A program made the position numbers and the translations under genes. The notes below the pieces were generated by a model. It worked only from the letters and a program-made list of their open reading frames with translations, made no database searches and was not told the origin of the DNA. Below, in pieces: positions 14,955 through 42,366 of a stretch of DNA of 64,000 bases (position 1 is the stretch's first letter; each line of letters begins with the position of its first letter). Where the stretch lies: sequence record MW394391.1; one strand, written 5' to 3'. The stretch comes from Klebsiella phage vB_KpM_FBKp24.

Positions 14955-16199
14955 TTACCCCTTCACGCAGACTATTTGTTTCAACGTAAAAAGAACTTCC
15001 ACGAGATCGTCTTGCGAACGCATTACATCGTCAATGTTCTTATACGCTTTTGGTGTTTCATCGATGACATCTTTGTCTTTGCGGCATTCGACGCCTTCAG
15101 TGTCACGTATTTGATCTTCTACTGTGAAGACACGTTTTGCTTCTCCACGGGACATCAGACGACCGGCGCCATGGGAACACGAGCAGAATGATTCTGAATT
15201 CCCTTTCCCGCGTACCACAAATGTTTTTGCACCCATCGACCCGGGAATAATAGCGAGATCGGTTGTCCTGGCTCTGACCGCCCCTTTACGGGTAACAAGG
15301 ACGTTTTGATCAAAGTGATTTTCCAGCGCAACGTAGTTATGATGACAATTGATGGCGGTCACTTTATTCTCGAAGGGTTTTTGTAAAACCTTATGCAGCG
15401 CAATCAGTGTTGCATTGAGCATAATGGCGCGGTTTACAGCCGCGAAGTCCTGTGCCCATTGCACAGCTTCTAGGTAGTCTTTGTAGTAGACCGACCCTTC
15501 CGGTAAATAAGCCAGGTCGTCATCAACTAAATGGATAAAGAAACGCGCCATTTCTTCCTTTGCTTTCTCAATGAAGAAACGACCAATTGCGTTACCTATA
15601 CCGCGAGAACCGGAATGAATTACTATCCAAAGTGAGTCATTCTGGTCGAGTGATAATTCAACAAAATGATTGCCGCTACCCAACGTTCCTGCGTGTGAAG
15701 CAAAACGGTTCGCGTTACGTAACAGAGTAGGGTATTTATCAGTGATGAACTTCAAGCGATTCTCTAATGAGACTAACTCGGCTTTAAGCTGTAGCGTTAA
15801 GTTTTGAGGGTCATTATTACCCCACGCTCCCCGGTCGTTCGGCCCACCGTTATCGGTACGGCCATGGGGGATGAGTTGTTCAATCGCGCTACGAATACCG
15901 GAAAGATCTGTTGGTAAGTCCTCGCGTTTTAACGATGTCTGTTGACCCACCAACCCGCAACCAATGTCAACACCAAGCGCAGCAGGAATAATGGCCCCCT
16001 TTGTTGCAATGACAGAACCTATTGTCGCACCCATCCCCCAGTGGACATCGGGCATGACTGCGATATGCTTGAAGATAAACGGTAAGGTAGTGAGGTTATG
16101 AAGTTGTTTTTCTGCCTGCTCTTCCACTGGGACAAATTTTGTCCAAGATTTAATGTTGACTTTGTCACCTTTAATAAAAACAATATTTGAATCTGACAT
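14955..16199 (-). CDS. rtcB: RNA-splicing ligase RtcB (3'-phosphate/5'-OH RNA ligase)
   Basis: Hallmark RtcB motifs: HWGMGATIGSV, GSGNHFVEL, HSGSRGIGN, NCHHNYV, CSHGAGR. Confidence 0.95.
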   Translation of the reverse strand: MSDSNIVFIKGDKVNIKSWTKFVPVEEQAEKQLHNLTTLPFIFKHIAVMPDVHWGMGATIGSVIATKGAIIPAALGVDIGCGLVGQQTSLKREDLPTDLSGIRSAIEQLIPHGRTDNGGPNDRGAWGNNDPQNLTLQLKAELVSLENRLKFITDKYPTLLRNANRFASHAGTLGSGNHFVELSLDQNDSLWIVIHSGSRGIGNAIGRFFIEKAKEEMARFFIHLVDDDLAYLPEGSVYYKDYLEAVQWAQDFAAVNRAIMLNATLIALHKVLQKPFENKVTAINCHHNYVALENHFDQNVLVTRKGAVRARTTDLAIIPGSMGAKTFVVRGKGNSESFCSCSHGAGRLMSRGEAKRVFTVEDQIRDTEGVECRKDKDVIDETPKAYKNIDDVMRSQDDLVEVLFTLKQIVCVKG

Positions 16200-22172: not shown

Positions 22173-22646
22173 TTAACCCTCAAACCGATAGACGATAATT
22201 TCAAAATCAGTATCCGAAAAAACCCGCTTGATATTTTCACTCACGCGCTCCCAGTCACCACCTGCTAACCCGCACCCCAATAGAGGGAAACCGACTTTTA
22301 AAACCCTCCCTTCCTTTTTCAGGATAGAGGCCATTAGTTTCAACGCCAGATAAAGAGCAGCGTAATGGGTTTTATAGTCAGGGTGCGAATGTTCGTGATG
22401 AAATTGACCACAAAGGTTGAAGCCCCATTGATTCCCATTCTTAGCAGCAGTTAATTTCCCCAAGCGTTTGTTGTAAGGGCGCTTATCGGAAAAGTAAGAT
22501 TCCGCTAACCAAGGCAATGCTTCGAATATTTTAACAGCAATACCGCTCTTAGCGACCCCAAAGCAATTGACTTGGTGGGCTATGACGTCAACTTCCTTAT
22601 TAAGAAAGGCTTCAATCAAATCCCCTTTTATTTCAGTGTATTTCAT
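22173..22646 (-). CDS. macrodomain protein, TARG1/OARD1/DarG-like (157 aa)
   Basis: KGDLIEAF...VDVIAHQVNCFGVAKSGIAVKIF and VGFPLLGCGLAGGDWERVSENIKRVFSDTDFEIIVY align closely with the TARG1-type macrodomain (GDLF..AHCIS.DCRMGAGIAV ; MPRIGCGLDRLQWENV...ITVY). Confidence 0.8.
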   Translation of the reverse strand: MKYTEIKGDLIEAFLNKEVDVIAHQVNCFGVAKSGIAVKIFEALPWLAESYFSDKRPYNKRLGKLTAAKNGNQWGFNLCGQFHHEHSHPDYKTHYAALYLALKLMASILKKEGRVLKVGFPLLGCGLAGGDWERVSENIKRVFSDTDFEIIVYRFEG

Positions 22647-26024: not shown

Positions 26025-27412
26025 ACCGACACCTCTATTTTAATCGCAGGGTGGTGTTTGTATTCCGTGAAGACGAAGTCCTCAAAGGTGAGTTCAAATA
26101 ATCCTTTCTTTGGAACGACCACCGCCGAATCGTAATAGTGCTCAGAACGAACAAAACATTCTACTGGTTTATACGGCTCACGAGTAAGCTGTAATTTCAC
26201 TTCCTCGATCTGGTTAAGGTAGATATGGACGTTAGTCAGATTACCAACCAACTGTTTTGGCGCCATCCCCAACTCATGGGCAAAGGCCAGTAACATGAAT
26301 GCGTAGAACGCCTGGTTATACGGTTCGCCGACGGGTAAGTCCACGGAACGCATTGAGTACTTAAGACTCAACCACTGCGTAGGGACATGATTCTCAGTGA
26401 GCCACTCCGCTTTACGTTCTGCCGACATCTTAGGTTGATTACAATGTTCTTCTGCGTAGCAGTCGGACATGTGATCTTCCCAGAGATCCTGGAAGTACGG
26501 GTTAGCGTTATTCGCGCACCAATCCAAACGCTCGCGCAGCGTCATCTCTTCCACGTAGAACTCTACGAGGAAATGACAGGGAGTGAGGCACGGTTTTCCG
26601 TTGATAACGTTTTCCTGCGGTGTCACCTTTACCGTCTTAGTTCGCGGTACCCCGTGACTGGCCAGAAAATCTTCGCAGTTATCGGTCTTACCGTGATCTT
26701 CCAGGCGCGGCCAGAAGATCGCATAAAGGTCCGGGCTGTGGGTTTTTAAATGTTCCCACATCTCGTCATTAGTGAGAGTAACTTCTTTCGTTTCCTCTGG
26801 CATCCAGAGTGGGTTCCACGCCGAGATGAGAATCCGGCGGGATTCTGGATTGTTCCGCAGCAGGTCTAAAACATATGCGACTTGATCAACGCCTTTCTTC
26901 TTAAGCGGGTCTTCCGAGAAGTTTCGCCAGGCGCTACCATACGGCGCATTCAGATCATTTACGTGATGTGCGATTACCGAGCGCGTACGCGGTACGTTAT
27001 GCGAATCCAACCACACGTGACCCTCTTCGACTGGGCGAATAGAGATCTTCTTACTGAAGAACTCGATGTACGCATCTTCGTTGTTTTCTTCCAGCCAACG
27101 CAAACGCTCGTAATTCTCCAACTCCACTTCCGTAGAGACGTTTTCCTTCAACCGCCACGGCGCCCAGAAATCCCCTTTCCCGTCCTCGGTGATCATCGAC
27201 TCCATATGGAGCTCACCATTAAGGATAGAACGGAACTCTCGCCAAGCCAGTTTACGAGAAACAAACTTTGTGGTGAGTAACGGGAACTCACCTTTTGATA
27301 GATCGTATTTTAATCTGGCATCAAAAATACCGATAGTCCCTGTCCCGGTACGATCGCCGCGCACTCGTCCTGTTTCCAAGACTTCCTGGAGTAATTCAAG
27401 GTATTGTTTCAT
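26021..27412 (-). CDS. thyA: thymidylate synthase family protein (ThyA or dUMP hydroxymethylase-like), 463 aa with three internal insertions
   Basis: MKQYLELLQ..GDRTGTGT..FPLLTTK, RRILISAWNP, catalytic PCHFLVEFYV, and LSLKYSMRSVDLPVGEPYNQAFYAFML...NVHIYLNQ all align with ThyA; about 180 extra residues sit in three blocks. Confidence 0.9.
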   Translation of the reverse strand: MKQYLELLQEVLETGRVRGDRTGTGTIGIFDARLKYDLSKGEFPLLTTKFVSRKLAWREFRSILNGELHMESMITEDGKGDFWAPWRLKENVSTEVELENYERLRWLEENNEDAYIEFFSKKISIRPVEEGHVWLDSHNVPRTRSVIAHHVNDLNAPYGSAWRNFSEDPLKKKGVDQVAYVLDLLRNNPESRRILISAWNPLWMPEETKEVTLTNDEMWEHLKTHSPDLYAIFWPRLEDHGKTDNCEDFLASHGVPRTKTVKVTPQENVINGKPCLTPCHFLVEFYVEEMTLRERLDWCANNANPYFQDLWEDHMSDCYAEEHCNQPKMSAERKAEWLTENHVPTQWLSLKYSMRSVDLPVGEPYNQAFYAFMLLAFAHELGMAPKQLVGNLTNVHIYLNQIEEVKLQLTREPYKPVECFVRSEHYYDSAVVVPKKGLFELTFEDFVFTEYKHHPAIKIEVSV

Positions 27413-27642
27413 TTATTCTCATTCTCCCCTATTTCAGTTAATTTCAACATCAAGTTATTGCGTGCGTTTAGCATAGTCTGTGTATTTTTAAAACCTATGC
27501 GCAGTTCACCACCGGAATAGAAGAGAACTTTAAAAAACGCATAATCGTTTCGGTCTTCTGGCCATGCCGGCCCAACAAACTTTATGTCGCTTAGATCAAT
27601 CATAAAACTTTGATCTGTACCATCGAGTATCGTAGTTAACAT
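27409..27642 (-). CDS. hypothetical protein (77 aa)
   Basis: ORF, 4-nt overlap with thyA. Confidence 0.45.
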   Translation of the reverse strand: MLTTILDGTDQSFMIDLSDIKFVGPAWPEDRNDYAFFKVLFYSGGELRIGFKNTQTMLNARNNLMLKLTEIGENENK

Positions 27643-28031
27643 TCACTTTCCTCAGTAAAAATTTTATCGATGTACGGCGTTTTATTGACCCCAACAAATT
27701 CCCCGGTAAACCATCCGTCGGAGAGACGAACGATCTTGTAATAAAACATCCGGTTAAATCGCGTTCCGTTTTTCTTTGTGATCATGTTCGTTATTGCTGC
27801 CGGCAAACAAAAGGCACCAGACATGATCTTTCTTTCGTATCCTTTACCGACCCGGAATCGGAATTCTTCTGTGGTTGTATCAACCTCAAAGTCGATCGAT
27901 GAATACAATTCCGGTTGTAGGTCCCGGAAACCTGCGGAGAGATAACAGCTCCCACCAGGCATTAAGCGAAGGTAAATGCTCTTTTGTTTCAGCGTAAGCT
28001 TGGGAATATTCTCGAGTTTCTCAAAGGGCAT
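27636..28031 (-). CDS. hypothetical protein, paralog of 29723..30133 (start probably Met MPFEKLEN)
   Basis: Shared pattern FRFRVG..Y.R....G.F.LP.A......K......R..Y.....DGW..G.F with ORF 29723..30133. Confidence 0.45.
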   Translation of the reverse strand: MPFEKLENIPKLTLKQKSIYLRLMPGGSCYLSAGFRDLQPELYSSIDFEVDTTTEEFRFRVGKGYERKIMSGAFCLPAAITNMITKKNGTRFNRMFYYKIVRLSDGWFTGEFVGVNKTPYIDKIFTEESEC

Positions 28032-28560
28032 CTGAGTTTGCTCCAAATTGGAAAGGTGAAAAGAAGTTGATAACCATTTCGACCTTTTCTTTGTCAATAA
28101 AGAACTTCCCAACTTCGTTATAGTCTGGGTCAAGGAAGTCGACGAGCCTTTCTTTAAAATACTCGCAAACCACATCGTTTTGTTTCATTTCACTGATGGC
28201 GGAGACTCTCAGTATAACTTCGCCTTCAATCTTGTTGATGTGGTAATTCACGGTGTACCCGCGCAGCGCGGTGTTGATTTCTCCAACATGGAGTGTTTCG
28301 ACGTAGAAGCTAGAATAGCCAAATTGACCATCCCAGTTTTCTTTTAGAACCAGTTCGAATTTCTCCTCGACTCTGCGCAGGATTTGCGTAAAATCTTTTT
28401 CAAGTTCAGGAATTACTTTTCTTTTACGCTCTTCTAATTCATCAACGTAAAGGAAAAGCTCTTTAAACTTATTCCCTCCGCGAGTAGAGAGTTCTTTTTC
28501 TTTTTTCAAAAACCAAAATATTTGATCGAGTTTCATTTTTATTCCTCCGTAATTTATCAA
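28021..28560 (-). CDS. hypothetical protein (179 aa)
   Basis: ORF in gene train. Confidence 0.5.
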   Translation of the reverse strand: MINYGGIKMKLDQIFWFLKKEKELSTRGGNKFKELFLYVDELEERKRKVIPELEKDFTQILRRVEEKFELVLKENWDGQFGYSSFYVETLHVGEINTALRGYTVNYHINKIEGEVILRVSAISEMKQNDVVCEYFKERLVDFLDPDYNEVGKFFIDKEKVEMVINFFSPFQFGANSDAL

Positions 28561-28576
28561 AATAAAACAAGACGGA

Positions 28577-28608
28577 ATAAAAAGAGAGGGGGAGATTCCC
28601 CTCTCTTT
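28577..28608 (-). terminator. intrinsic terminator hairpin
   Basis: agagaggggga-gat-tcccctctct stem-loop followed by a U-run on the minus transcript. Confidence 0.65.
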
Positions 28609-28609
28609 T

Positions 28610-29209
28610 CTATTTACCCGTGCGAGTGTTTACCCAGGAAGACAAATGCTTCAGTTTGTCACGATGAGCGAGTAGCTTGCTCCAGCTTTTCTCGGGTTTG
28701 TTGGTGGAATCTCCAACTACCCTTTGATAGGCGTAGACGATTTGATCGTAAGAAACTTCAGCCGGCATCCCGCCAGTGGCCGTACAGAAGAGAGGCATGA
28801 CAACCTCAGAAATTTTCCTGTCGGGTGTCATCTTATTGAAATAAACAATTTGACAGAATGCAGCGAGGGCCACACGGTAAGCGATATCTTTTTCTTTTGC
28901 GGGGCTAGGAAAACGCATAGTCGGCGCGTAGCACAGCTGTAGATTACCGCCTAAAGAAACAGTAATAGCTTGGCCCACCGGCATTTCTTTACCCCAGAAA
29001 CGCTCGATAGCAAATTGTACTGCATCTTGAGAATCGGGAAATTTATTCGCTATAACTTTGTCGAAGCCGCCATCCATGATCCCGAATGAATTACCTGGCG
29101 TAATAACGCAGTCGTAATCTTTTCCCGGGATCAGCGCATTAAAGTCGCCTTTCTGGTAATGTTGGCGGGGTGAAAGATTTACTCTGTCAACGATCTTTAG
29201 ATTAAACAT
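28610..29209 (-). CDS. macrodomain protein (199 aa), ADP-ribose or ADP-ribose-1''-phosphate binding or processing type
   Basis: DCVITPGNSFGIMDGGFDKVI and VVMPLFCTATGGMPAEV match the macrodomain Gly-rich and catalytic-loop signatures. Confidence 0.75.
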   Translation of the reverse strand: MFNLKIVDRVNLSPRQHYQKGDFNALIPGKDYDCVITPGNSFGIMDGGFDKVIANKFPDSQDAVQFAIERFWGKEMPVGQAITVSLGGNLQLCYAPTMRFPSPAKEKDIAYRVALAAFCQIVYFNKMTPDRKISEVVMPLFCTATGGMPAEVSYDQIVYAYQRVVGDSTNKPEKSWSKLLAHRDKLKHLSSWVNTRTGK

Positions 29210-29213
29210 TTTA

Positions 29214-29699
29214 TTACCTTCCTAGATTAAAGAGTGATTGTAAAGGGCTCAGTAATGGTTTCTTGTAGTTTCGATAGACGATCTCGATTGATAACTTTGC
29301 TCCGGATTTGGAGGTCAAAAGAAGTACATCTGAAATGTATCGGGTTTTCAGGAGCTTCTTCTTCTGATAAATCTCAAGAACTTTCTCGGCTTTCTCGTCG
29401 ATAAGGTAATCGCTATCTAGCCTTACTCGAATTTCTTTCAGTGCATTAGTTCGAATCGCAAGTTGAAAGTCGATAGAGAGTCGAGGCGCTGTCACCTTGA
29501 CAGACCCTTTCTCCCCGATACCGTTCTTCAACTTCTCATGGAAAGCAACGCTGGCTGATTTGTCCCGTAAATATTCGGTGACTTCGTCTATCGTCTTGGA
29601 GATAACAGCGATCAGTGCGATCTCTAGACTTTGGGGTTCTTCTTCCACCGGTTCTTCAAGTGATTGAAACAATTTAGCAAGTGGGTCGGCTGAGGTCAT
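29214..29699 (-). CDS. hypothetical protein (161 aa)
   Basis: ORF in gene train. Confidence 0.5.
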   Translation of the reverse strand: MTSADPLAKLFQSLEEPVEEEPQSLEIALIAVISKTIDEVTEYLRDKSASVAFHEKLKNGIGEKGSVKVTAPRLSIDFQLAIRTNALKEIRVRLDSDYLIDEKAEKVLEIYQKKKLLKTRYISDVLLLTSKSGAKLSIEIVYRNYKKPLLSPLQSLFNLGR

Positions 29700-29722
29700 T
29701 TTTTACTCCTACTTTTATCAGA

Positions 29723-30133
29723 TCAAATCCAACGATCGTTAGGGCGAATAAAGGTTTGGAAAACGCCGTACCACCAACCGTCGTCTTTCAAAACGGGTTG
29801 GAAGTAGGCAGAACGCCGCATTGACCCGACCTGATTTTTCCCTGCAGCAATAATATTCTTGTACCAAATAGTGCGTAGTACTGCACTAGGAAGCTGGAAT
29901 TTCCCGCCCACTAAAGGACGGTCGTAATTTTCCCCTACACGAAAACGAAACCTACCATTGTTAGGCTCGTATTCAAAGTCGATAGTATTGTTTTCCCCCT
30001 CTTCTAATCCCCAGAGAAATGTCTTTGATAATGAACAGTCCGAATCGCGCGACAGTCGAATGTAAGGTACTGTATAGACTTGCTCACGCGGAGTAGAGGT
30101 AGTGGGAGTATATGGTATCTTGATAAAAGGCAT
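29723..30133 (-). CDS. hypothetical protein (136 aa), paralog of 27636..28031
   Basis: Shared sequence pattern with ORF 27636..28031. Confidence 0.5.
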   Translation of the reverse strand: MPFIKIPYTPTTSTPREQVYTVPYIRLSRDSDCSLSKTFLWGLEEGENNTIDFEYEPNNGRFRFRVGENYDRPLVGGKFQLPSAVLRTIWYKNIIAAGKNQVGSMRRSAYFQPVLKDDGWWYGVFQTFIRPNDRWI

Positions 30134-30149
30134 GTAATTCTCCTTGACT

Positions 30150-30187
30150 AAAAAATAAAAGAATAGAGGGGAATTAATTCCCCTCTA
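30150..30187 (-). terminator. intrinsic terminator hairpin
   Basis: tagaggggaatt-aattcccctcta stem-loop followed by UUCUUUUAUUUUUU on the minus transcript. Confidence 0.7.
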
Positions 30188-30192
30188 CGTTA

Positions 30193-30555
30193 TTAGCAGA
30201 CGATCGAATCAACGAACAGTGCGGTATTGCTGCGAGTCGGCTGAATTTGCTTTTCGATGGTCGGGAAGAATTTACCGGCGGCGTTAATGAAAAGAAACGC
30301 GGTGTCTTTCTCGCCGCGACCTACTTTTTCGGCCGATAGAACACTAACCGGGAAAGGAACAACTTTGACTTTATCAATCACTGCCGGACCAAGGTAAAGC
30401 TCGATCATTTCCGCAAACTTTTTACGGGTCGCTGGATCACCGTAAACTTTAATTGTTTTCCCTTTTACCAGGTTATTGAGAATGAACGCTGCGTAGTGAA
30501 GCAGCGCTGTATTGTTGAAAGTACCTGTAACGCGGATCGATTGAATTCGTTTCAT
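30193..30555 (-). CDS. hypothetical protein (start probably Met MKRIQSIRV)
   Basis: ORF; ATGA overlap with upstream gene 30552..31109. Confidence 0.45.
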   Translation of the reverse strand: MKRIQSIRVTGTFNNTALLHYAAFILNNLVKGKTIKVYGDPATRKKFAEMIELYLGPAVIDKVKVVPFPVSVLSAEKVGRGEKDTAFLFINAAGKFFPTIEKQIQPTRSNTALFVDSIVC

Positions 30556-31109
30556 TTCGTGAACACCCAATAAACACTGTAGAAGTTGATCGCATGAATA
30601 CCGGAAGAGAGGGTATCAAGTTCCCCTAGGTCATCAGGGTCAATAAGGTTGACCTTTAACCCTGTCGCCAACAAACGTTTCAGATTGTAAGCCACGGCTG
30701 TCTGAGGAATCCGAAACGTAATCGCTTGTTGGTTTCTGAAGTGACTAACCAAATCGCGAGGGGCATCACCTAAACGTTCTAGATACTTAGCGAACGTTTC
30801 GCCATCTAACCCGTCTAACGACCACTGCCAAACGACACCGTCTGCCGCAACGACAGCCACTCCTTTATAACGATACGGTTTTTGGTATTCTCCCCATTTG
30901 ATACTCTCTGGCTGATAGCAAGAATTGTAATCTGTGATCCTCAGTTCTTCGCCAGGTTCTGCTTCATCGACCATTTCAGCAAAAGCGGGAAGGAGAATAG
31001 TCTCACCGGCAGCGTTTTTAGCATGGGCGACAATTTCACCCTCAGTGAGCCCATAAGCATCAGCTGCGTAAACCCCACGTTCAAACTTCAATTTTATCTG
31101 CTGAGTCAT
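30552..31109 (-). CDS. hypothetical protein (185 aa)
   Basis: ORF, 4-nt overlap with the tpt1/kptA homolog. Confidence 0.5.
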   Translation of the reverse strand: MTQQIKLKFERGVYAADAYGLTEGEIVAHAKNAAGETILLPAFAEMVDEAEPGEELRITDYNSCYQPESIKWGEYQKPYRYKGVAVVAADGVVWQWSLDGLDGETFAKYLERLGDAPRDLVSHFRNQQAITFRIPQTAVAYNLKRLLATGLKVNLIDPDDLGELDTLSSGIHAINFYSVYWVFTK

Positions 31110-31675
31110 TCTTTCTTTTCCTCTATTTTAAAACAGCCAACCGGAACGTGCCTGACTAACCAGACCCCGTTCAACGCTTTGTAGAACACGTAGCCGAGCT
31201 CAATTAATTTCTCGGCATCTACGCTCAGTACCACGAGAGAGCCTTTCTTAGCGTACCGTAAACCCACTAACCGCGCCGTCTCAATGTGATCGGTCAAATG
31301 GACAAACTGACGAGATTGCGGATTGAGTCCGTTCTCAAAAATGCTCTCTAAGTTACCCGATGCGGTACCGTGGTACAAAACCCTAGGAGGGGTCTCTTTG
31401 CTAAAAGACATTTCATTCACTGGGAAAGAATGCCCTTGTACCGCTCTGATTGCCGAAAGGTCTTTGGAAAGACTGAATCGTTTCTTGTCGTCTGTTTCAA
31501 CGACGTACATTAACTCCTCTAAACTGACCTCTTTTTTCTGCTCACTGAAAGCAGCAATAAGATCGTCGAGTTTTACATATCCAAATTCGTCCGGCGTTAA
31601 TTTCAATGCCTGAGGGCGATGACGTAAAACAAAACAGAGCGTTTTAGACAGTTTAATGGGGTCATTCATTAGCAT
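31106..31675 (-). CDS. kptA: RNA 2'-phosphotransferase Tpt1/KptA
   Basis: SKTLCFVLRHRPQALKLTPDEFGYVKLDDL (Arg-His-Arg catalytic cluster), IRAVQGHS, LYHGT, SRQFVHLT match the KptA/Tpt1 signature. Confidence 0.9.
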   Translation of the reverse strand: MLMNDPIKLSKTLCFVLRHRPQALKLTPDEFGYVKLDDLIAAFSEQKKEVSLEELMYVVETDDKKRFSLSKDLSAIRAVQGHSFPVNEMSFSKETPPRVLYHGTASGNLESIFENGLNPQSRQFVHLTDHIETARLVGLRYAKKGSLVVLSVDAEKLIELGYVFYKALNGVWLVRHVPVGCFKIEEKKE

Positions 31676-32180
31676 GAATACTCTTGTTAATGTAAATATT
31701 CCACCCCGGACTCACCCATACTGGAATTTTAAAACCTAAATGGTCTTCTTCTCGATAACCCCAATCTTCCCTTTTAGTAAATGAAAAGAAACGATCGCGA
31801 TCCGCTCTCAACTTATCGTAATAGGCAAACATTTTGTGATCAATTGCCTCTGCTTTATATTTCGCATAGAGCCATTTGCGATACTGCGCTTCCATTTCAT
31901 TGTATTCCACCGGCTCATACCCAGAAAGAATCGTCACACCACCAGTAACATTTTCGGGGTAGCACTGGAGTCCATCCCAAATAGCGGGAAGGGGGATAAA
32001 GTCACCCAGTTCCCAAATATCGAACATGGGTGTCAGAACAGAGCGTGGCTCATCCGGGCAAACACTGAATGTTGCGTTACGGAAAGCGGCTTCTTTATCT
32101 TCAGCGGCAATTAATAACACCGTCGCTTCTTTAGACTCAGGAAGATCGTAAAACTTCTCACTTGCCAGAAAAAGTTTCAT
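31662..32180 (-). CDS. hypothetical protein (172 aa)
   Basis: ORF directly downstream of kptA; possible Rossmann-like fold, unverified. Confidence 0.5.
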   Translation of the reverse strand: MKLFLASEKFYDLPESKEATVLLIAAEDKEAAFRNATFSVCPDEPRSVLTPMFDIWELGDFIPLPAIWDGLQCYPENVTGGVTILSGYEPVEYNEMEAQYRKWLYAKYKAEAIDHKMFAYYDKLRADRDRFFSFTKREDWGYREEDHLGFKIPVWVSPGWNIYINKSIHANE

Positions 32181-32455
32181 TATCGTTCCCCTATTGCGCC
32201 TAGTTCAGTTTTAACCCAACTAAAACAATATTTCCCTTCGTACTGTGTATTCATGAGCGCCTTAGGAGTGGTTTTGGTAGGATCAAAAACACAGACGAAG
32301 ATACGATTGAAACGTTCTTCTCCCTTGTAGATAAATAACCCCTCGCGATTAAAAACTGCGGATACGAACCCTGGTAAAGTTTTAAGAAATTCTAATGCCT
32401 TTTCTTGGTCTTTTTTAAGGTTCCCTGTTGAAAATTCCACATTAATTACTTTCAT
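32180..32455 (-). CDS. hypothetical protein (91 aa)
   Basis: ORF in gene train. Confidence 0.45.
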   Translation of the reverse strand: MKVINVEFSTGNLKKDQEKALEFLKTLPGFVSAVFNREGLFIYKGEERFNRIFVCVFDPTKTTPKALMNTQYEGKYCFSWVKTELGAIGER

Positions 32456-33161
32456 TATTATTCCCCTGTGCAGTTAGACCAAAATAATGACATTTACCTT
32501 GCGCAGCAACTCGGTATTTCTTTGCGTGCGCTGCACCAAGCGCAGTGTAAAACTTGAGATTGCTGATGTAGTCAATATTCCTTTCCGTAAACTCTTCACG
32601 TGTCTGCCCGAACCGAATACCGATCTCTTGGTACAACCCGTTAAAGATATCTTCATCGAGATAAGACATTGCGTAAAGTTGATCGGCGTCCCGAATAATG
32701 CCGAATAAATAACGCATACCGGTACCACCGGGATACTGCGGAAAAGGGTCGTCGAAGTTATAATGCGTGAATCCAACTAATAAAGTGATCATCGCTTTAT
32801 TAGCCGTAGGAAACTCACACCAGAAACCTAATTGCTCAAGTTGCTGTAAAGCGTGCTCGATATTTTTCCAGTCATCTTTCTCTCCCAAATGACAGAAATC
32901 GTGAACTAACCCTGCAATGACGGCTGATTCAAAATCCTTCTCAGAGAGTCCGTAATTTGATGGCTCAAGATTAGAAAGAAGATAACTTGTTAATACACCA
33001 ACGCCAATTAAATGGTGCGTAGAATGATAAGGGCGGTCGACGTTGTGTTTTTCCACCCACTGCATCATTTTACCGTATCGATTAAAGAATTGTCGTCCCC
33101 AGATAGGGTTAAACTCTTCTAACGAATACGCTTCCCAGAAGTTTGAAAATTCACTATTCAT
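32442..33161 (-). CDS. HD-domain metal-dependent phosphohydrolase (239 aa)
   Basis: HSTHHLIGV ... LVHDFCHLG ... IRDADQL give the H..HD..D signature. Confidence 0.7.
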   Translation of the reverse strand: MNSEFSNFWEAYSLEEFNPIWGRQFFNRYGKMMQWVEKHNVDRPYHSTHHLIGVGVLTSYLLSNLEPSNYGLSEKDFESAVIAGLVHDFCHLGEKDDWKNIEHALQQLEQLGFWCEFPTANKAMITLLVGFTHYNFDDPFPQYPGGTGMRYLFGIIRDADQLYAMSYLDEDIFNGLYQEIGIRFGQTREEFTERNIDYISNLKFYTALGAAHAKKYRVAAQGKCHYFGLTAQGNNNESN

Positions 33162-33867
33162 TGCTAACCTCGTAGTAAGCCATATTGACCGCCTTTAACG
33201 TTTTAACGATCATTTCAGAATCAAATATGGTTTGGTTCCAGTTACGGTGAGTGGCGACGTAGAATTCGTGTTCCTCGGGCGTAAACTCAATATAGAAGCT
33301 GTGGTCAGCATCAACAAGGGCGGAAATTTTATTAGTGGCAGCACAGTAGAGAACTTTAGTACCCGCTAACTCAGAAATACGTTTAAGTTTATCCGGGTTA
33401 ATTAAAGGGTGTGCTAAAAACGACTCTACTGTCCCCTTAAACGGGAGAATATTCATTTCGCCGTTAGAGGAGTCCGTCGGTCCCAGGTATTTCCTCACCG
33501 CAATCTGACAATATTCTTCGACCTGATTACAATATACTTCCATCAACTCTTTCGGAACTTCGAAGAGTTTTTTCTCCAGGCGGTCGATTAATCCATTTGT
33601 CATAATCTCGTCGTTGCGAATCAAGACCATCGGAAACCATTTCTGCAATAAACAGAAGAATCGAGGGTCCACTCCATGATTCGTTAAATAACTAACGAAC
33701 TCGGTGGTTCCAATACCTGCTATCCAACCAAAAGGTTTATTAGTACCGGGAGGGATAAAGTCTTCGTCTGACCAAAAAGCGCGAAGATAATGTTGATCGC
33801 GACTGAGAGCCTGAACAAAGAAAGTAAATTCTGGTTTAAGATTTAAGAAACGTTCGATGAGCTGCAT
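33154..33867 (-). CDS. hypothetical protein (237 aa)
   Basis: ORF overlapping the HD gene start, same unit. Confidence 0.5.
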   Translation of the reverse strand: MQLIERFLNLKPEFTFFVQALSRDQHYLRAFWSDEDFIPPGTNKPFGWIAGIGTTEFVSYLTNHGVDPRFFCLLQKWFPMVLIRNDEIMTNGLIDRLEKKLFEVPKELMEVYCNQVEEYCQIAVRKYLGPTDSSNGEMNILPFKGTVESFLAHPLINPDKLKRISELAGTKVLYCAATNKISALVDADHSFYIEFTPEEHEFYVATHRNWNQTIFDSEMIVKTLKAVNMAYYEVSNE

Positions 33868-34355
33868 TAGTTATTCTCCAGATGGATACGAATTTTAAAA
33901 TCAACAAACGGTGTAATCTCTTGTCCATTGAGTAAGAGGGGCGTGGTGTAGTCAGTTATTATTCTAAACGCCCGTAACTCAAAACCAATGATTATGGTGA
34001 AATCAACCACCACACCTTCTCTGAATACAGAGAATGTTTCTCTAGGAACATTCCCTAACCCAGTACTACGGAGAATCATCTCGTTAGTACTTACGAATGT
34101 TGTAGTGATAGGTGAGTCGCTTTCCGGGTCTTTCCATAAACGACTCACCGAAAGGACTTCGATACTGGTAATTCTCTTGTTGTCTGGAACAATATTTTTC
34201 AGTTTGTGGATGCGGTCGTCTGAGATCGTTAAATCGAAGAAAGGGACATCAGCATTTTCAAGTTTTGGGTCGTTCAATAACCTTTGAGTTTCCTTTACTT
34301 TAGCACTATCGCTGAGATTACTAGCCATGATTCTTCGAATATCGTCAAGTAACAT
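33867..34355 (-). CDS. hypothetical protein (162 aa)
   Basis: ORF downstream of promoter-like motif 34387-34412. Confidence 0.5.
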   Translation of the reverse strand: MLLDDIRRIMASNLSDSAKVKETQRLLNDPKLENADVPFFDLTISDDRIHKLKNIVPDNKRITSIEVLSVSRLWKDPESDSPITTTFVSTNEMILRSTGLGNVPRETFSVFREGVVVDFTIIIGFELRAFRIITDYTTPLLLNGQEITPFVDFKIRIHLENN

Positions 34356-34412: not shown

Positions 34413-34464
34413 AAAAAAAAAACAATACAGTAACCTCTCCCTCTGGCCTAGGCCAGAGGGAGAG
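34411..34464 (-). terminator. intrinsic terminator hairpin
   Basis: ctctccctctggcc-taggccagagggagag stem-loop followed by a U10 run on the minus transcript. Confidence 0.75.
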
Positions 34465-34469
34465 TACGG

Positions 34470-34944: not shown

Positions 34945-34965
34945 AGGGATATAGATGTCAAATTT
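34945..34965 (-). promoter_or_regulatory. recurrent promoter-like motif variant (minus: AAATTTGACATCTATATCCC)
   Basis: About 60 nt upstream of membrane protein gene 34470..34877. Confidence 0.4.
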
Positions 34966-35506
34966 GTTTGATATCGAGTTCGGGGATAGGCATTTCACGA
35001 AAGATACATTCGTTCTCTACTACTGCCCCTAAACCACCTTCCGCATAAACAGCCTTTAACCCGCGTTTCTGATACCGGCGTTTACCGATGGGGGTTTCTG
35101 ACATGCTGTCATTAGTGAAGAGAAGAAATATTCTTTTCCCATCAAAGTCAGTGTAGAGAGAATAGTCCGTTTCGACCCCTTCCTCTTCACCATCCTCGGC
35201 AAAGCAGAAATCAACAACACCCATTGATATTAACCAGAAGAGGCGCTTGTACTCCCCCAGAAGTTTCGTGTCATCGAGGAGTATTTCCCCGGGTTGGTTG
35301 ATCCTCTCCACGATACTTGCATCGATCAGTTCTGCGTTAGGTTCTTCGGGATCGTACAGATCAGAAAGTATATCCCATGCCCCATCTCTTCCAACGCTGA
35401 CAAAAAGAAACTGATCATTGTCTTCATCGTACATCACCTTGAGACAGTCTTTCTCGATCAGACTTAAAGCGGTACGATACTTTTCTAATAAAGATTCGTT
35501 TTCCAT
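34958..35506 (-). CDS. hypothetical acidic protein (182 aa)
   Basis: ORF in gene train. Confidence 0.5.
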   Translation of the reverse strand: MENESLLEKYRTALSLIEKDCLKVMYDEDNDQFLFVSVGRDGAWDILSDLYDPEEPNAELIDASIVERINQPGEILLDDTKLLGEYKRLFWLISMGVVDFCFAEDGEEEGVETDYSLYTDFDGKRIFLLFTNDSMSETPIGKRRYQKRGLKAVYAEGGLGAVVENECIFREMPIPELDIKQI

Positions 35507-40299: not shown

Positions 40300-40989
40300 T
40301 CATTTATTGGTTTTGGTGATATACCATTTCCAAAGACCGTAGAACGCGTTCATCAAGAACACCGCCCATTGCGCAACCTGCGCCCATGAACCCGGTTGAT
40401 TAAGCGCCGGGATCACCCACAGATAAATCGTGACGCAGTTGATAATGATCCAGAGAATCCATTGCTCTGGCTGCTGCTTGATCATCATCCACATGGCGAT
40501 GAGCGATGCGACTAAGCAGAATGCGTCTAAGGCAGGAAACGGATCCTGCGTCGTTTTCAGGTATTCGGTCAGGCCATACCAGAAGATAACCCCAACAACC
40601 AGATATGTTATCACGTCACGTAAAGTGATCGTTTTAACCGCTACGTCAGCTTTGGCTGGAGTTTTGCCCAGGTCTTTCGTCCAGTAATAAATACCGATAA
40701 ACTGCATGGGAAGGTAAATAGCGTTCAACGCCGCATTCGCGTAGAGTCCGGTATTGTACGAAACAATACCGTAGGTAATTACACCAACGGTTCCCCAGTA
40801 GTAATTGGAGACACGACCTTTCGCTACCAGAATAACGCAGATCACGTTAGTCAGCGCCGCCGTAAATTCAAGTGGGCTGGCGCTCCAGCTACCAGCGCCC
40901 ACTAAGATCAACGCAATGATCAGCCAAAGGTATTCGACTTTCTTCCAGTGCGCAAAGTCAGTGAACGTTTTCAATACAAGTGTATTCAT
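40300..40989 (-). CDS. pnuC: nicotinamide riboside transporter PnuC
   Basis: Multi-pass membrane protein aligning with PnuC (YYWGTVGVITYGIVSY..., WILWIIINCVTIYLWV). Confidence 0.85.
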   Translation of the reverse strand: MNTLVLKTFTDFAHWKKVEYLWLIIALILVGAGSWSASPLEFTAALTNVICVILVAKGRVSNYYWGTVGVITYGIVSYNTGLYANAALNAIYLPMQFIGIYYWTKDLGKTPAKADVAVKTITLRDVITYLVVGVIFWYGLTEYLKTTQDPFPALDAFCLVASLIAMWMMIKQQPEQWILWIIINCVTIYLWVIPALNQPGSWAQVAQWAVFLMNAFYGLWKWYITKTNK

Positions 40990-41151: not shown

Positions 41152-42366
41152 TCAATCAGAAGACTTATGGTGACAGCGATCTTCGACACTATCTACCATC
41201 GCCTGAATCAAAGTAGTAATCGATCCGTCAGAAGGCGCGGTTTGGAACTTACCGGGCTCATCTTTCCGTACTGCGTCCCACCCCAGGAACCCTTCGTTAA
41301 ATGCCAGTAATTGATCTACGGCCGCACGGGCTTGATCTAAACGGCCTTTGTACGAGTCGCCAGTAATAAATACCGTACGCCCCCGAGGAGTTTGGTTTTT
41401 AAACTCCAGGAGCATTTGTTGGAATAACCCGTCAGTTTTCTCTCGATCCGGATTTAAACGCAAGCCGTCATCGACCCACGGGACTTCAGGAGACAGTATC
41501 AGAACGAGGTCGTAGTGTTCTTCGGCTGCGATGGCGGAGACGATAGGGTTAGGTTTACCTTCGTACAGACGATGGTAATACTCCGTGACGAAAGCGTTAG
41601 TATCGACGAAACAAAGTCGATTAGAGGTTCGTAACGCTTCCTCCTCCAACTCTTTGTGACGATACGCAATCAACGGGTAGTCAGAACTACGCAGTGTTAA
41701 CTCAGAGCCCGCTAAGACGGTTTCACAGTACGTACGGCCGTACTCTTCTACCCAGCTGGTGTTGTAGAGTTTAGCGAGGTTCTTGACGAGATTTGATTTA
41801 CCCGCGCTCTCGACACCCATGACGACAACCCGCAGACAATAGTCCTTACGGACAATACTGGGGAGATATTCCCAGTTGGCGTAAAGGTTATCACGTACTT
41901 TAGTGGCCGAGATAGGAACACGAGTACGTTCACTGTCAACGATGACGTGCTCAACAAAACCGAGGTGAGTTTTGTATTTCTCATCGTAATCCAGTTCGCT
42001 ACTGAAGATTGCGATAGATTGAGCTTGGCTGTGTTTAGCAGCCAGTTTCCCGGCCTCGCTGAAAATCTTTGCCCCTAATAAAGCGGCGTATTCCTGCCAG
42101 CCGTTAGGATATTCCGGCACCGAAGCTTCGTCGATGAAATCGATCGTAACGTGTTCGGTATCGGCGTAGGTTTGTTGCAACCAGCGCAGACGGTTTTTGA
42201 AGTTCAACACCTGCTGATCGCGGGGAGATTGTTTGTCCAACCAACGTTGGTCGTGAGATAATACCACGAGGACGTGTTTCGATTGGACAGCAGCTTCTGT
42301 AATTAGGTTGATGTGCCCCAAAGTCAGGGGTGCAAACTTACCGATGACGACGCCTAAATCAAACAT
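41152..42366 (-). CDS. nadR: bifunctional NMN adenylyltransferase / ribosylnicotinamide kinase (NadR-type, no helix-turn-helix domain)
   Basis: N-terminal NMNAT motifs GKFAPLTLGH and ISATKVRD; C-terminal kinase Walker A GVESAGKS. Confidence 0.9.
   Translation of the reverse strand: MFDLGVVIGKFAPLTLGHINLITEAAVQSKHVLVVLSHDQRWLDKQSPRDQQVLNFKNRLRWLQQTYADTEHVTIDFIDEASVPEYPNGWQEYAALLGAKIFSEAGKLAAKHSQAQSIAIFSSELDYDEKYKTHLGFVEHVIVDSERTRVPISATKVRDNLYANWEYLPSIVRKDYCLRVVVMGVESAGKSNLVKNLAKLYNTSWVEEYGRTYCETVLAGSELTLRSSDYPLIAYRHKELEEEALRTSNRLCFVDTNAFVTEYYHRLYEGKPNPIVSAIAAEEHYDLVLILSPEVPWVDDGLRLNPDREKTDGLFQQMLLEFKNQTPRGRTVFITGDSYKGRLDQARAAVDQLLAFNEGFLGWDAVRKDEPGKFQTAPSDGSITTLIQAMVDSVEDRCHHKSSD

Follow-up and report, generated by a model that had tools for sequence, protein, structure and literature searches.

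The window analysed here, a stretch of 64,000 nucleotides from Klebsiella phage vB_KpM_FBKp24 (MW394391.1), was checked for open reading frames (ORFs), and all those named in a previous sequence-only reading were found on the minus strand with exactly the coordinates it had given (Table 1). Six ORFs, regarded there as unknowns, lie between the genes encoding a macrodomain, a Tpt1/KptA RNA 2'-phosphotransferase and an HD phosphohydrolase. Three strong hairpin-plus-U terminators, at ~34440, ~30170 and ~28590, mark out units A and B. Unit A is a run of eight genes including those for HD and KptA, with hairpin terminators at both ends and overlapping gene starts and stops all along from 34355 to 30193, and the macrodomain gene sits in the next one, unit B. 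RNA folding gave -29.4 kcal/mol for the first hairpin (z = -5.5; none of 200 shuffled sequences folded equally well), -17.1 kcal/mol for the second (z = -4.3) and -21.6 kcal/mol for the third (z = -4.4).

Table 1. Features of the module and related genes in the window, ordered along the minus strand.
Feature	Coordinates	Strand	Remarks
NadR-like NMN adenylyltransferase / ribosylnicotinamide kinase	41152..42366	-	NAD+ supply; Pfam AAA_28 3.4e-30 and CTP_transf_like
PnuC nicotinamide riboside / NMN transporter	40300..40989	-	NAD+ supply; 97% identical to Centimanus PnuC
Intrinsic-terminator-like hairpin and U-tract	34415..34467	-	Upstream boundary of unit A
162-aa protein	33867..34355	-	First gene of unit A; stop overlaps next gene's start
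237-aa protein	33154..33867	-	Conserved partner directly upstream of HD
HD-superfamily metal-dependent phosphodiesterase, 239 aa	32442..33161	-	Class I PDE-like fold
91-aa protein	32180..32455	-	No counterpart in close relatives; kept near KptA in L097 and L098
172-aa protein	31662..32180	-	Fused to HD C-terminus in L097
Tpt1/KptA NAD+-dependent RNA 2'-phosphotransferase, 189 aa	31106..31675	-	Pfam, PHROG, PDB profile, tetrad
185-aa protein	30552..31109	-	Overlaps KptA stop; kept in clade relatives and L099
125-aa protein	30193..30570	-	Last gene of unit A; PHROG 12807 at 1.6e-14, function-unknown family
Terminator-like hairpin and U-tract	30150..30188	-	Divides unit A from unit B
136-aa protein, small domain family	29723..30133	-	Family found in each module version
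161-aa protein	29214..29699	-	Gained or lost jointly with macrodomain
Macrodomain ADP-ribose hydrolase (predicted), Macro_2 / Ymx7 / DarG-like, 199 aa	28610..29209	-	Profiles, AF2 model, Foldseek
Terminator-like hairpin and U-tract	28570..28610	-	End of unit B
Second macrodomain, TARG1/OARD1-like	22173..22646	-	Pfam Macro 1.3e-3; PDB 4j5r TARG1 5e-7
RtcB RNA ligase	14955..16199	-	Pfam 4.1e-120; 15 kb away

The assignment of the full-length 189-aa protein to Tpt1/KptA was borne out by Pfam PF01885 (2.7e-42, 145 bits versus a cutoff of 26) and PHROG 5470 (2.3e-56), its best solved homologue being Runella Tpt1 (7kw8, 8.8e-41). The R-H-R-R tetrad, R18-H19-R66-R122, aligns with R16/H17/R64/R119 of RslTpt1, as taken from PMC6097658, and is invariant in all six phage homologues aligned, KptA being thus predicted to be catalytically intact. 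Profiles and structure prediction likewise agree with the proposed macrodomain. Its Pfam Macro_2 match (5.3e-6, 26.4 bits) falls slightly below the cutoff of 27, an NCBIfam ADP-ribose-binding model matches at 2.5e-5, and its homologues bear PF14519 or PF01661. Residues G39-N40, D46-G47-G48 and G146 are invariant in the family alignment, and the family profile matches 1njr, the yeast Ymx7 Appr-1''-pase, at 5.1e-11 in the PDB. The AF2 model (pLDDT 94.5) retrieved only macrodomains as top Foldseek matches, the nearest structures being DarG and the yeast Ymx7 ADP-ribose-1''-phosphatase, with the M. tuberculosis DarG macrodomain ranking highest (1.1e-7). As modelled, the product is a true macrodomain and a predicted ADP-ribose hydrolase; as precedents, macrodomains acting as Appr-1''-p phosphatases are known in Ymx7 and Poa1p (PMC9503650; also PDB entry descriptions). 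The second macrodomain carries Q and A at the TARG1 K84 and D125 positions, as read from the alignment, and the clade has up to three macrodomains.

For the HD protein Pfam matches were all sub-threshold (PDEase_I 3.5e-3, HD 0.04), and its identity as an HD phosphohydrolase is upheld by PHROG 16069 'phosphohydrolase' (3.2e-22) and by the invariant motifs H46..H50, H87-D88..H91-x-G93 and D158,D160. Its fold is best matched by 3',5'-cyclic-nucleotide phosphodiesterases, the likeness to SidE being much weaker. The cyclic phosphodiesterase that the sequence-only reading had suspected among four neighbours (the 161-, 172-, 185- and 237-aa proteins) found no characterised match in any of them; being class-I-PDE-like, the HD protein itself is plausibly the block's candidate for this activity, on RNA 2',3'>p and/or Appr>p. 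To our knowledge, Appr>p phosphodiesterases are all 2H enzymes, and we know of none of the HD type.

KptA, the macrodomain and the 172-aa protein recur within 4-7 kb in three divergent metagenomic jumbo-phage contigs (L097, L098 and L100), where KptA is only 53-62% identical, gene order is shuffled and HD is retained in two of the three, being absent within 10 kb of the macrodomain in L098. The order in L097 is 162, 237, an HD::172 fusion, RlaP, 91-like, KptA, 125-like, macrodomain, 136-like and RNA ligase; that in L098 is 237, macrodomain, 172, NadR, PnuC, RlaP, 379-like, 91-like, KptA, 136-like and RNA ligase; and L100 shows 172, HD, 136-like and then KptA with the macrodomain directly after. 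On a fourth fragment, L099, 237, HD and KptA are adjacent. The presence of an Rnl2-like RNA ligase together with RlaP inside the module in two lineages (L097 and L098) points to RNA repair. Most of the gene order that L098 and L100 have outside the module matches that of the window, and overall collinearity of related genomes may be a partial source of the conserved co-location. That the KptA, HD and macrodomain genes constitute a functional island and not chance neighbours is supported by the terminator-bounded run common to KptA and HD and by retention of the set in rearranged, divergent contigs. Their co-location is unlikely to be due to chance, since by a rough estimate, in which a 300-kb genome is taken to hold ~10 genes related to NAD/ADP-ribose, at least two of these would fall within 2.5 kb of KptA with a probability of ~0.01, the set is kept in divergent lineages, and the 237-HD-KptA core reappears in the fourth fragment.

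Homologues of the 162-aa protein, for which Pfam returned nothing, occupy the same position in clade relatives, L097 and L099. The 237-aa protein, with only 6 matches in 5.8 billion proteins, all in-clade, and none in the PDB profile search, has divergent homologues adjoining HD in L097 and L099 and the macrodomain in L098. Those of the 91-aa protein in L097 and L098 are 37-41% identical. Only ~5 true representatives of the 172-aa protein were found among 1.84 billion proteins, and the PDB profile search gave no match; its alignment conserves E18, D54, E76, R101, R128, FSF, E145 and H147, and the L097 fusion is a single 398-aa ORF with HD followed by the 172-aa part in the same frame. No family match was obtained for the 185-aa protein in Pfam, PHROG or NCBIfam searches. 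The 125-aa gene probably has its true start at the ATG at 30555, which would shorten the product to 120 aa, the length in relatives; in L097 its homologue stands with KptA on one side and the macrodomain on the other. In unit B, the 136-aa protein, unmatched in a PDB search, has a paralogue at 27636-28031 and homologues adjoining the macrodomain, ligase or KptA in L097, L098 and L100, and the 161-aa protein is present in KpLz-2_45, KpYy_2_45 and LPKP23 at 68-69% identity.

Centimanus, the nearest relative (92% nucleotide identity), is missing both the 161-aa gene and a macrodomain of the 28610-29209 type, indels being frequent even among 92%-identical relatives. It also has no RtcB; of 11 clade relatives, just 3 have this gene. 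The RtcB that had been described as standing alongside the block is real and functionally related, although its distance and patchy occurrence set it apart. Sealing by RtcB leaves clean junctions, and the window holds no 2H enzyme, no junction-forming ligase and no enzyme known to make an internal 2'-PO4, so that the complete processing route suggested earlier as a possibility is not supported. Rnl2 and RlaP homologues are found neither in the window nor in the whole Centimanus genome, whose content includes Nampt, Prs, NadR (annotated as nadR), PnuC, a polynucleotide kinase and 8 tRNAs. In the window, PnuC and NadR lie 7-9 kb upstream; PnuC shares 67% identity with an L098 gene of PF04973, and the NadR copy of that contig has the macrodomain on one side and KptA on the other. 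The KptA, macrodomain and HD families occur independently beyond this phage group, many phages having HD- or macro-family genes without KptA, some KptA phages having neither, and Ea35-70, Y3 and phiCD211 sharing KptA alone with the window.

A group of phiKZ-like, probably nucleus-forming, enterobacterial jumbo phages has the block as a conserved accessory module. We give roughly even odds (about 0.5) to the reading in which it repairs cleaved RNA, probably tRNA, at the expense of NAD+ and disposes of the ADP-ribose by-product, its substrates being those we infer below. Of the interpretation previously put forward, this keeps the three enzyme identities and the functional island, and gives up completeness. 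Host or rival ribonucleases would leave 2',3'-cyclic phosphate ends, and the HD/PDE enzyme with its 172-aa partner would open cyclic phosphodiesters, either at the RNA 2',3'>p end (yielding 2'-PO4/3'-OH, like the CPD domain of fungal Trl1), or in the Appr>p product, or in both; the 2',3'-phosphoesterase HD domain of Runella HD-Pnk invites comparison. Since terminal 2'/3'-phosphates are not removed by Runella Tpt1, the nearest homologue with known biochemistry (PMC6573784), a junction-forming ligase would be required. The break would be sealed by the Rnl2-like ligase in relatives, RtcB or a host enzyme being the candidates here, and KptA would then use NAD+ as acceptor of the 2'-phosphate, with nicotinamide and Appr>p as products. 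Conversion of Appr>p to Appr-1''p would be followed by dephosphorylation to ADP-ribose by the macrodomain, for which stalled ADP-ribosylated RNA ends might be a further substrate, and NAD+ would be restored by PnuC and NadR, joined in the nearest relative by Nampt and Prs.

Alternatively, the region could gather independent counter-defence genes in a shared accessory, early-type region, held together by vertical synteny and shared expression timing and not by one pathway, the macrodomain reversing DarT/CmdT-type ADP-ribosylation of phage DNA/RNA, HD degrading cyclic-nucleotide or cyclic-ADPR-type immune signals, and KptA acting separately. It is favoured by DarG being the top structural match of the macrodomain, with DarG and TARG1-type hydrolases nearest, by the clade having up to three macrodomains, of which the 28610-29209 one is dispensable in Centimanus, by macrodomain and HD homologues being widespread in KptA-less phages, by the HD fold being closest to 3',5'-cyclic-nucleotide phosphodiesterases, by L098 and L100 staying largely collinear beyond the module, and by NAD+ salvage genes being known to counter NAD-depleting defences (PMC9503650). 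It nonetheless appears rather unlikely, as the set survives local rearrangements, such as the NadR/PnuC placement in L098, KptA and the macrodomain are direct neighbours in L100, HD adjoins KptA in L099 and shares its terminator-bounded unit in the window, two lineages include RNA ligase and RlaP, and Bacteroidota clusters bring the same functions together using folds that are unrelated.

The ligase and RlaP of the relatives, indicative of repair, also argue against KptA and the macrodomain being a writer/eraser pair, KptA capping 5'-phosphorylated RNA/DNA ends with ADP-ribose, to protect phage transcripts or disable host RNA, and the macrodomain removing the cap. Tpt1 enzymes can attach ADP-ribose to 5'-phosphate ends (PMC6182162), a modification that several macrodomains undo (PMC6582358, PMC11833690), and the Centimanus polynucleotide kinase would supply such ends in a genome with no annotated RNA ligase. 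However, the biological relevance of 5'-phosphate capping is uncertain even in studied systems (PMC11833690), and HD, which would trim the adduct as the Legionella SidE PDE domain does on ADP-ribosylated ubiquitin, is far closer to cyclic-nucleotide PDEs than to SidE, making this pairing distinctly improbable. Mere coincidence among three loosely NAD- or phosphate-related, functionally unrelated genes would agree with the dense single-stranded gene runs typical of jumbo phage accessory regions, the frequent indels between close relatives, and the phages sharing KptA alone. It is hardly credible given a neighbourhood kept in four divergent lineages despite shuffling, with a fusion and a direct adjacency, terminators at the operon ends, analogous bacterial clusters and the low chance estimate.

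Regarding known systems, the Runella Tpt1 gene cluster comprises HD-Pnk, ligase, Tpt1 and methyltransferase (PMC6097658). Three Bacteroidota loci combine KptA with ARH or NADAR, a metallophosphoesterase and Nampt; of 80 KptA loci from bacteria, no more than 3 show this ARH/NADAR-metallophosphoesterase set and 2 more have a single such gene, and the clusters are analogous to the phage module but built from unrelated parts. The phage combination had been called unusual, an overstatement, since Iyer et al. (PMC7824862, PMC9503650) had already proposed that in some jumbo phages KptA serves NAD-dependent RNA repair together with 2H and Macro domains, and the general KptA-plus-Macro repair idea thus belongs to the prior publication of Iyer and Aravind. 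New here are the terminator-bounded eight-gene unit, the retention in rearranged contigs, the HD::172 fusion, the KptA-macrodomain adjacency, the Rnl2-like ligase and RlaP added in two contigs, the analogous Bacteroidota set and a previously undescribed module make-up, in which an HD/PDE enzyme takes the place of the usual 2H enzyme.

All the ORFs cited in the sequence-only reading were found where it had placed them, and its assignment of one of them to Tpt1/KptA holds. The KptA protein scores 145.3 bits against Pfam PF01885 (cutoff 26), with residues 7-175 of 189 covered, and 196.7 bits against the NCBIfam equivalog models, under their cutoff of 239, so that it belongs to the family without being closely orthologous to the bacterial clades that were modelled. 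It aligns end-to-end with solved Tpt1 structures, the best match being the enzyme of Runella slithyformis (RslTpt1; 7kw8, 8.8e-41), for which R16, H17, R64 and R119 are reported as essential residues, the Arg-His-Arg-Arg tetrad (PMC6097658). In the alignment these positions correspond to R18, H19, R66 and R122 of the phage protein, invariant in six phage homologues. Since the tetrad matches the essential residues of RslTpt1, the possibility raised by that reading of a protein lacking it can be set aside. Judging by its sequence, the phage enzyme is probably an NAD+-dependent remover of internal RNA 2'-phosphate.

Coordinates of the features of the module, its boundaries and related loci
Feature	Position	Strand	Evidence
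KptA / Tpt1	31106-31675	minus	Pfam PF01885 2.7e-42; PHROG 5470 2.3e-56
Macrodomain	28610-29209	minus	Macro_2 near threshold; Ymx7 profile match; macro fold model
HD protein	32442-33161	minus	invariant HD motifs; class I PDE-like fold
RtcB	14955-16199	minus	4.1e-120; 15 kb from the module
Hairpin and U-tract	~34415-34467	coding strand	-29.4 kcal/mol
Hairpin and U-tract	~30150-30188	coding strand	-17.1 kcal/mol
Hairpin and U-tract	~28570-28610	coding strand	-21.6 kcal/mol
~125-aa family copy in a relative	L097:10602-11036
~125-aa family copy in a relative	L098:18109-18987
~125-aa family copy in a relative	L100:9074-9451
Bacteroidota KptA cluster, Emticicia	L070:4844-8729
Bacteroidota KptA cluster, Chitinophagales MAG	L014:4032-7271
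Bacteroidota KptA cluster, Chitinophaga	L045:5450-8213

A confident fold model bears out the proposed macrodomain, towards which profile searches also point. Its score against Pfam Macro_2 (PF14519) is 26.4 bits, slightly short of the cutoff of 27, it also matches an NCBIfam ADP-ribose-binding model, and precomputed PF14519 or PF01661 matches are carried by 18 of its 23 homologues. Its sole PDB sequence match is yeast Ymx7/YMR087W (1.7e-6), and with a 22-sequence family profile the match to Ymx7 (1njr) rises to 5.1e-11, against 0.0099 for DarG; the Foldseek library labels the Ymx7 entry as ADP-ribose-1''-monophosphatase. The AF2 model (pLDDT 94.5, pTM 0.91) predicts a three-layer alpha/beta/alpha macro fold, and a Foldseek search with it returned 169 PDB matches at E<=1e-3, macrodomains exclusively, led by M. 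tuberculosis and T. aquaticus DarG, Ymx7, alphavirus (CHIKV) nsP3, macroH2A, Poa1p and TARG1. The protein contains the motif ITPG-N40-SFGIM-D46-GGFD and G146, with G39-N40, D46-G47-G48 and G146 invariant in 22 sequences. These loops align with GNSYG...GGGFD of Ymx7, suggesting by analogy that the ADP-ribose-binding/catalytic loops (the GN Asn, the Gly-rich loop 1 and the second Gly loop) are present. The protein is a candidate Appr-1''-p phosphatase or ADP-ribosyl hydrolase. A second macrodomain of TARG1/OARD1 type (22173-22646, minus strand; PDB 4j5r, 5e-7) is 97% conserved in the closest relative, Klebsiella phage vB_KpM_Centimanus (hereafter Centimanus); as Q and A align with the catalytic K84 and D125 of TARG1, it may work by a different mechanism or do no more than bind ADP-ribose. 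A third macrodomain occurs in Centimanus (PF01661 7.8e-10; record positions 132246-132692).

The HD protein carries the signature Y-H46-x3-H50 / H87-D88-x2-H91-x-G93 / D158-x-D160, of which H46, H50, H87-D88, H91, D158 and D160 are invariant in eight sequences, and its metal-binding residues are present too in the homologues of Klebsiella phage Eowyn and of ZPAH34. Against Pfam it remains under threshold for both PDEase_I (17.5 bits, 24.8 needed) and HD (14.6 bits, 22 needed), being therefore a divergent relative by sequence, outside either curated family. Its model is confident (pLDDT 88) and shows the class I PDE catalytic-domain fold, making it, by fold and position only, a candidate cyclic phosphodiesterase. 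A motif screen for the 2H-like HxT/S pair found none; the 'VHLTL' of 22665-23282 was rejected as a 2H phosphoesterase, its second motif being absent and Pfam giving no match. Encoded 1.8 kb upstream of the HD gene is a 182-aa protein (34958-35506, minus strand) that weakly matches the gene directly upstream of the Eowyn HD homologue (L090:4189-4803; phmmer 3.7e-6, the search being very small); Eowyn is absent among the KptA matches.

Eight genes follow one another from 34355 down to 30193 with overlapping or abutting stops and starts (unit A), encoding in order the 162-aa and 237-aa proteins, HD, the 91-aa and 172-aa proteins, KptA, and the 185-aa and 125-aa proteins, the uncharacterised ones being named by length. 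Three strong hairpins with U-tracts, having z-scores of -4.3 to -5.5 and no shuffle folding equally well, bound this unit and a following one formed by the genes for a 136-aa protein, a 161-aa protein and the macrodomain (unit B), so that HD and KptA are operon partners and the macrodomain belongs to the next transcription unit. The hairpins at 28570-28610 and 30150-30188 have in common a GAGGGGAAT...CCCCTC core, which may be a clade-typical terminator motif.

Of the uncharacterised module proteins, only the 125-aa one had a match in Pfam, PHROGs or NCBIfam, to PHROG 12807; PDB profile searches with the 172-, 237- and 136-aa families gave zero matches, and HMMER against 1.84 billion representatives recovered for the 172-aa protein clade members and two spurious repeat proteins only. 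The 125-aa protein, considered as a candidate cREC, has an alpha/beta look, but on inspection of its own sequence the two-aspartate site of cREC (PMC9503650) was not seen. A ~125-aa domain family with two paralogues in the window (29723-30133 and 27636-28031, minus strand) displays the conserved pattern E..FRF..G...R...G.F.LP....DGW, has no Pfam, PHROG or PDB matches, and adjoins the macrodomain, KptA or an RNA ligase in all module versions. The mechanically called ORFs 27636-28175 and 28021-28560 (minus strand) overlap by 155 nt; annotations in relatives and the alignment indicate that the downstream gene probably starts at an internal ATG at ~28031 (MPFEKL...), so that its long N-terminal extension would be an ORF-calling artefact.

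The genome containing the module is that of a jumbo myophage of ~300 kb, with the window's genes almost all on the minus strand; Rfam and tRNA scans of the window returned no match and no tRNA. A 6.5-kb region shows 92% DNA identity to Centimanus and 74-84% to ten further ~300-kb Klebsiella phages, such as KpLz-2_45 (genus Siatvirus). Since the annotated genes of Centimanus include those for a nuclear shell protein, for PhuZ tubulin and for split multisubunit RNA polymerases, the present phage is probably also phiKZ-like and nucleus-forming. Downstream of the module lie two AAA+ ATPase genes (10725-12029 and 19705-21096, minus strand), one with a BCS1-type N-terminal domain. A thymidylate-synthase homologue (26021-27412, minus strand; 463 aa; Pfam 9.6e-61) is ~200 residues above the usual length and carries large insertions, as its Pfam match falls in two separate stretches; in L097, a metagenomic jumbo-phage contig, the thymidylate-synthase gene is instead interrupted by a NUMOD3/I-TevI-type homing endonuclease gene.

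A single-sequence search of viral contigs with KptA, giving one close relative only, was replaced by tblastn against GenBank phages and by metagenomic look-ups. KptA occurs in 96 GenBank phage records, mostly Erwinia, Dickeya and Klebsiella jumbo phages and large Clostridioides phages, the macrodomain family in 45 and the HD family in 39, with an overlap of the three confined essentially to the Siatvirus-like clade. KptA is the sole gene shared with the window in the KptA neighbourhoods of Ea35-70, Y3 and phiCD211, as is HD in the HD neighbourhoods of Eowyn and ZPAH34, bar the weak 182-aa match in Eowyn. Centimanus has an unrelated gene in place of the unit B macrodomain and the 161-aa gene, and also lacks the 91-aa ORF and RtcB. 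In the Pseudomonas phiKZ-like phages PS119XW, phiLBG22, BRkr and HPP-Temi, none of them among the KptA matches, a Macro_2-type homologue lies ~5 kb from RtcB, a further association of a macrodomain with an RNA ligase.

The linkage of the module genes was settled in a second pass by contigs encoding more divergent macrodomain and HD homologues. L097 (264 kb; 53% identity for KptA, 47% for the macrodomain and 38% for HD) shows the order 162-like, 237-like, a 398-aa ORF, RlaP (PF10127), 91-like, KptA, 125-like, macrodomain, 136-like and a PF09414 RNA ligase, the 398-aa ORF being HD followed in one frame by the 172-aa protein (HD::172 fusion). The order in L098 (144 kb) is 237-like, macrodomain, 172-like, NadR, PnuC, RlaP, 379-like, 91-like, KptA, 136-like and RNA ligase, with HD absent in the 10 kb around the macrodomain. 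L100 (42.7 kb) contains 172-like, a 394-aa gene, HD, 136-like, KptA and, after 10 nt, the macrodomain, and in L099 the 237-aa, HD and KptA genes are mutually adjacent. The ligases inside the module in L097 and L098, both PF09414, are Rnl2-like, with best GenBank matches labelled 'RNA ligase 2'. KptA, the macrodomain and the 172-aa family are kept within 4-7 kb even where the locus has been rearranged or has undergone insertion, fusion or deletion, and HD and the 237-, 136- and 91-aa families likewise in most of these lineages. The module also has ties to recognised genes of RNA repair and to NAD+ salvage. More distant macrodomain homologues (31-39% identity) do not adjoin KptA; one in a P22-portal-type phage contig (L101:7801-11958) has a short PF09414 RNA ligase 1.5 kb away and a YAcAr (SLOG) gene as its neighbour, and two others (L102:6762-7142, L103:2730-3107) are found 2-3 kb downstream of genes with an RF-1 domain (ArfB-like).

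Among 80 bacterial KptA loci, profiles of the phage macrodomain and HD families found no neighbour, and a Pfam census of same-strand immediate neighbours was mixed, with no dominant partner. In three of the 80, from Bacteroidota, KptA is tightly clustered with an ADP-ribosylglycohydrolase (ARH) and/or NADAR, Nampt, and a calcineurin-like metallophosphoesterase, its start overlapping the stop of KptA. The functional set, in overlapping genes, is that of the phage: KptA is joined by a metal-dependent phosphoesterase, by an ADP-ribose hydrolase and by NAD+ salvage; the folds differ (ARH/NADAR against macrodomain, calcineurin-like against HD, Nampt against NadR/PnuC), and these clusters are cellular and from one phylum, whereas the phage module is viral. 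Such rebuilding from unrelated folds argues that the combination itself is selected. Listed with the Bacteroidota loci is an apparent NADAR::KptA fusion in a Clostridium MAG (L039:5683-6525).

Considering the identities of the enzymes and their neighbours, the module most likely repairs RNA cut by transesterifying nucleases, a reading given a probability of roughly 0.5. The HD/PDE enzyme would open a cyclic phosphodiester, either the RNA 2',3'>p end, the by-product Appr>p (the 1''-2'' cyclic phosphate of ADP-ribose) or both; KptA would pass the 2'-phosphate to NAD+; the macrodomain would convert Appr-1''p into ADP-ribose, or rescue ADP-ribosylated RNA ends; and PnuC and NadR would replenish the spent NAD+, a relative adding Nampt and Prs. 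For the by-product route a Ymx7/Poa1p-like macrodomain is present, and the HD protein would be the opener of the cyclic phosphate. It is established to which families the enzymes belong, that their catalytic motifs are intact, how the operon is built and that the linkage is conserved; all substrates and the order of steps we infer.

The weakest point of this repair model is the source of the 2'-phosphate. RtcB leaves clean junctions, with no 2'-phosphate. The RtcB gene that had been set alongside the module is genuine, though distant from it and found in three clade members only, at 90% identity; it is an indel polymorphism, its flanking genes being adjacent in Centimanus. Its product is 71% identical to RtcB of Erwinia Ea35-70-like jumbo phages, whose KptA lies ~23 kb away. 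RtcB is the sole ligase of the window, where none forming a 2'-PO4, 3'-5' junction is found, and neither the window nor the whole Centimanus genome contains an Rnl2-like ligase or RlaP homologue. As for a 5'-OH polynucleotide kinase, within the module there is no Walker A protein; elsewhere in the Centimanus genome a gene bears the label 'polynucleotide kinase', for which Pfam gave no confirmation. The weakness arises because (i) an Rnl2-like ligase and RlaP are missing, (ii) RtcB would leave no 2'-phosphate behind, and (iii) RslTpt1, the closest characterised homologue, is inactive on terminal phosphates, although some other Tpt1 enzymes are active on them (PMC6573784).

By structure, the unit B macrodomain is nearest to the DarG/TARG1 macrodomain hydrolases (5m3i, 1.1e-7; 5m3e, 1.2e-6), enzymes that reverse ADP-ribosylation of DNA or RNA. 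No DarT was seen beside the phage gene, Pfam and PHROG detect no ART family but KptA among its neighbouring ORFs, and by sequence the protein is nearer to Ymx7 than to DarG. The genes could be independent counter-defence functions, with a DarG-like macrodomain undoing host ADP-ribosylation and the PDE destroying immune cyclic nucleotides, an explanation regarded as rather unlikely. KptA and the macrodomain might instead form a 5'-phosphate ADP-ribose capping/decapping pair, which we find quite improbable. Outside the module, L098 and L100 largely follow the gene order of the window, so that part of the conserved linkage is inherited synteny; with the core genes held together across rearranged lineages, co-location by coincidence is hardly credible.

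Within the RNA-repair reading, it is tentatively proposed that HD and the 172-aa protein constitute a new, non-2H cyclic phosphodiesterase and, with KptA, the macrodomain and NAD+ salvage, a split phage counterpart of Trl1-Tpt1-Cpd1-Poa1. If true, this would be the first natural setting accounting for the purpose of bacterial-type Tpt1/KptA, and the ARH-metallophosphoesterase-Nampt version in Bacteroidota would agree with it. What Tpt1/KptA does in organisms that have no fungal-type tRNA ligase has long been an open question (PMC6573784, PMC6097658). Though unsurprising in concept, the module gives a tangible starting point for learning what bacterial-type Tpt1 enzymes do: the conserved phage operon links a phosphodiesterase, an ADP-ribose hydrolase and NAD+ salvage with KptA, relatives adding an RNA ligase and RlaP, and so provides a compact, genetically tractable route to the natural substrate of KptA. 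As Centimanus is a component of a Klebsiella therapy cocktail (PMC13436347), resistance to RNA-cleaving or NAD-depleting host defences is of practical interest. Should the HD/PDE enzyme process a cyclic phosphate, it would represent a new enzyme solution for Appr>p or RNA>p (RNA 2',3'-cyclic phosphate).

Fungal and plant tRNA splicing employs Trl1 (ligase, kinase and 2H cyclic phosphodiesterase), Tpt1, Cpd1 (2H) and Poa1p/Ymx7 (macrodomain). The phage module resembles this pathway in the intact KptA tetrad and in a macrodomain close to Ymx7 by sequence and to Poa1p by fold, and its phosphodiesterase could, by analogy, take the role of the Trl1 phosphodiesterase domain (CPD) or that of Cpd1. 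On the contrary, the phage parts are separate small proteins, the phosphodiesterase is of HD/PDE and not 2H type, and no intron-containing tRNA is involved, the window being devoid of tRNA. Compared with Trl1, the ligase of the phage relatives is Rnl2-like, and the window phage has none such.

The sequence-only reading had proposed a route processing RNA 2'-phosphate and ADP-ribose-1''-phosphate; the enzyme identities and the linkage partly bear it out. The idea had already been published as computational inference. NAD+-dependent, KptA-based RNA repair was predicted for jumbo phages by Iyer, Anantharaman, Krishnan, Burroughs and Aravind in 2021 (PMC7824862) and by Iyer et al. in 2022 (PMC9503650). 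As proposed here, phage KptA clears 2'-phosphates in their model, a cyclic phosphodiesterase and a macrodomain process Appr>p, and there are ties to RNA ligases, RlaP and NAD+ salvage. Their cyclic phosphodiesterase is a 2H enzyme or the predicted cREC (PMC7824862, PMC9503650), whereas here no 2H-like protein was found and the KptA-coupled gene encodes a class-I-PDE-like HD protein with clade-specific 172-aa and 237-aa partners. None of the papers searched describes the module of the Siatvirus-like clade, the HD::172 fusion or the terminator-bounded operon. Apparently new are the PDE-like HD protein with dedicated partners as the KptA-coupled phosphoesterase, replacing 2H, together with that operon, the fusion and the Bacteroidota parallel.

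The RNA repair cluster of Runella slithyformis comprises HD-Pnk, an ATP-dependent ligase, Tpt1 and a methyltransferase (Munir and Shuman; PMC6097658). It shares with the phage an HD-superfamily phosphoesterase beside Tpt1 and, considering the phage relatives, a ligase in the cluster. In a comparison made by description, the phage HD protein is stand-alone or fused to the 172-aa domain, unlike the kinase-fused HD-Pnk with its 2',3'-phosphoesterase HD domain; a macrodomain and NAD+ salvage are extra in the phage module, which lacks the methyltransferase. The Runella cluster is a further precedent for an HD phosphoesterase beside Tpt1.
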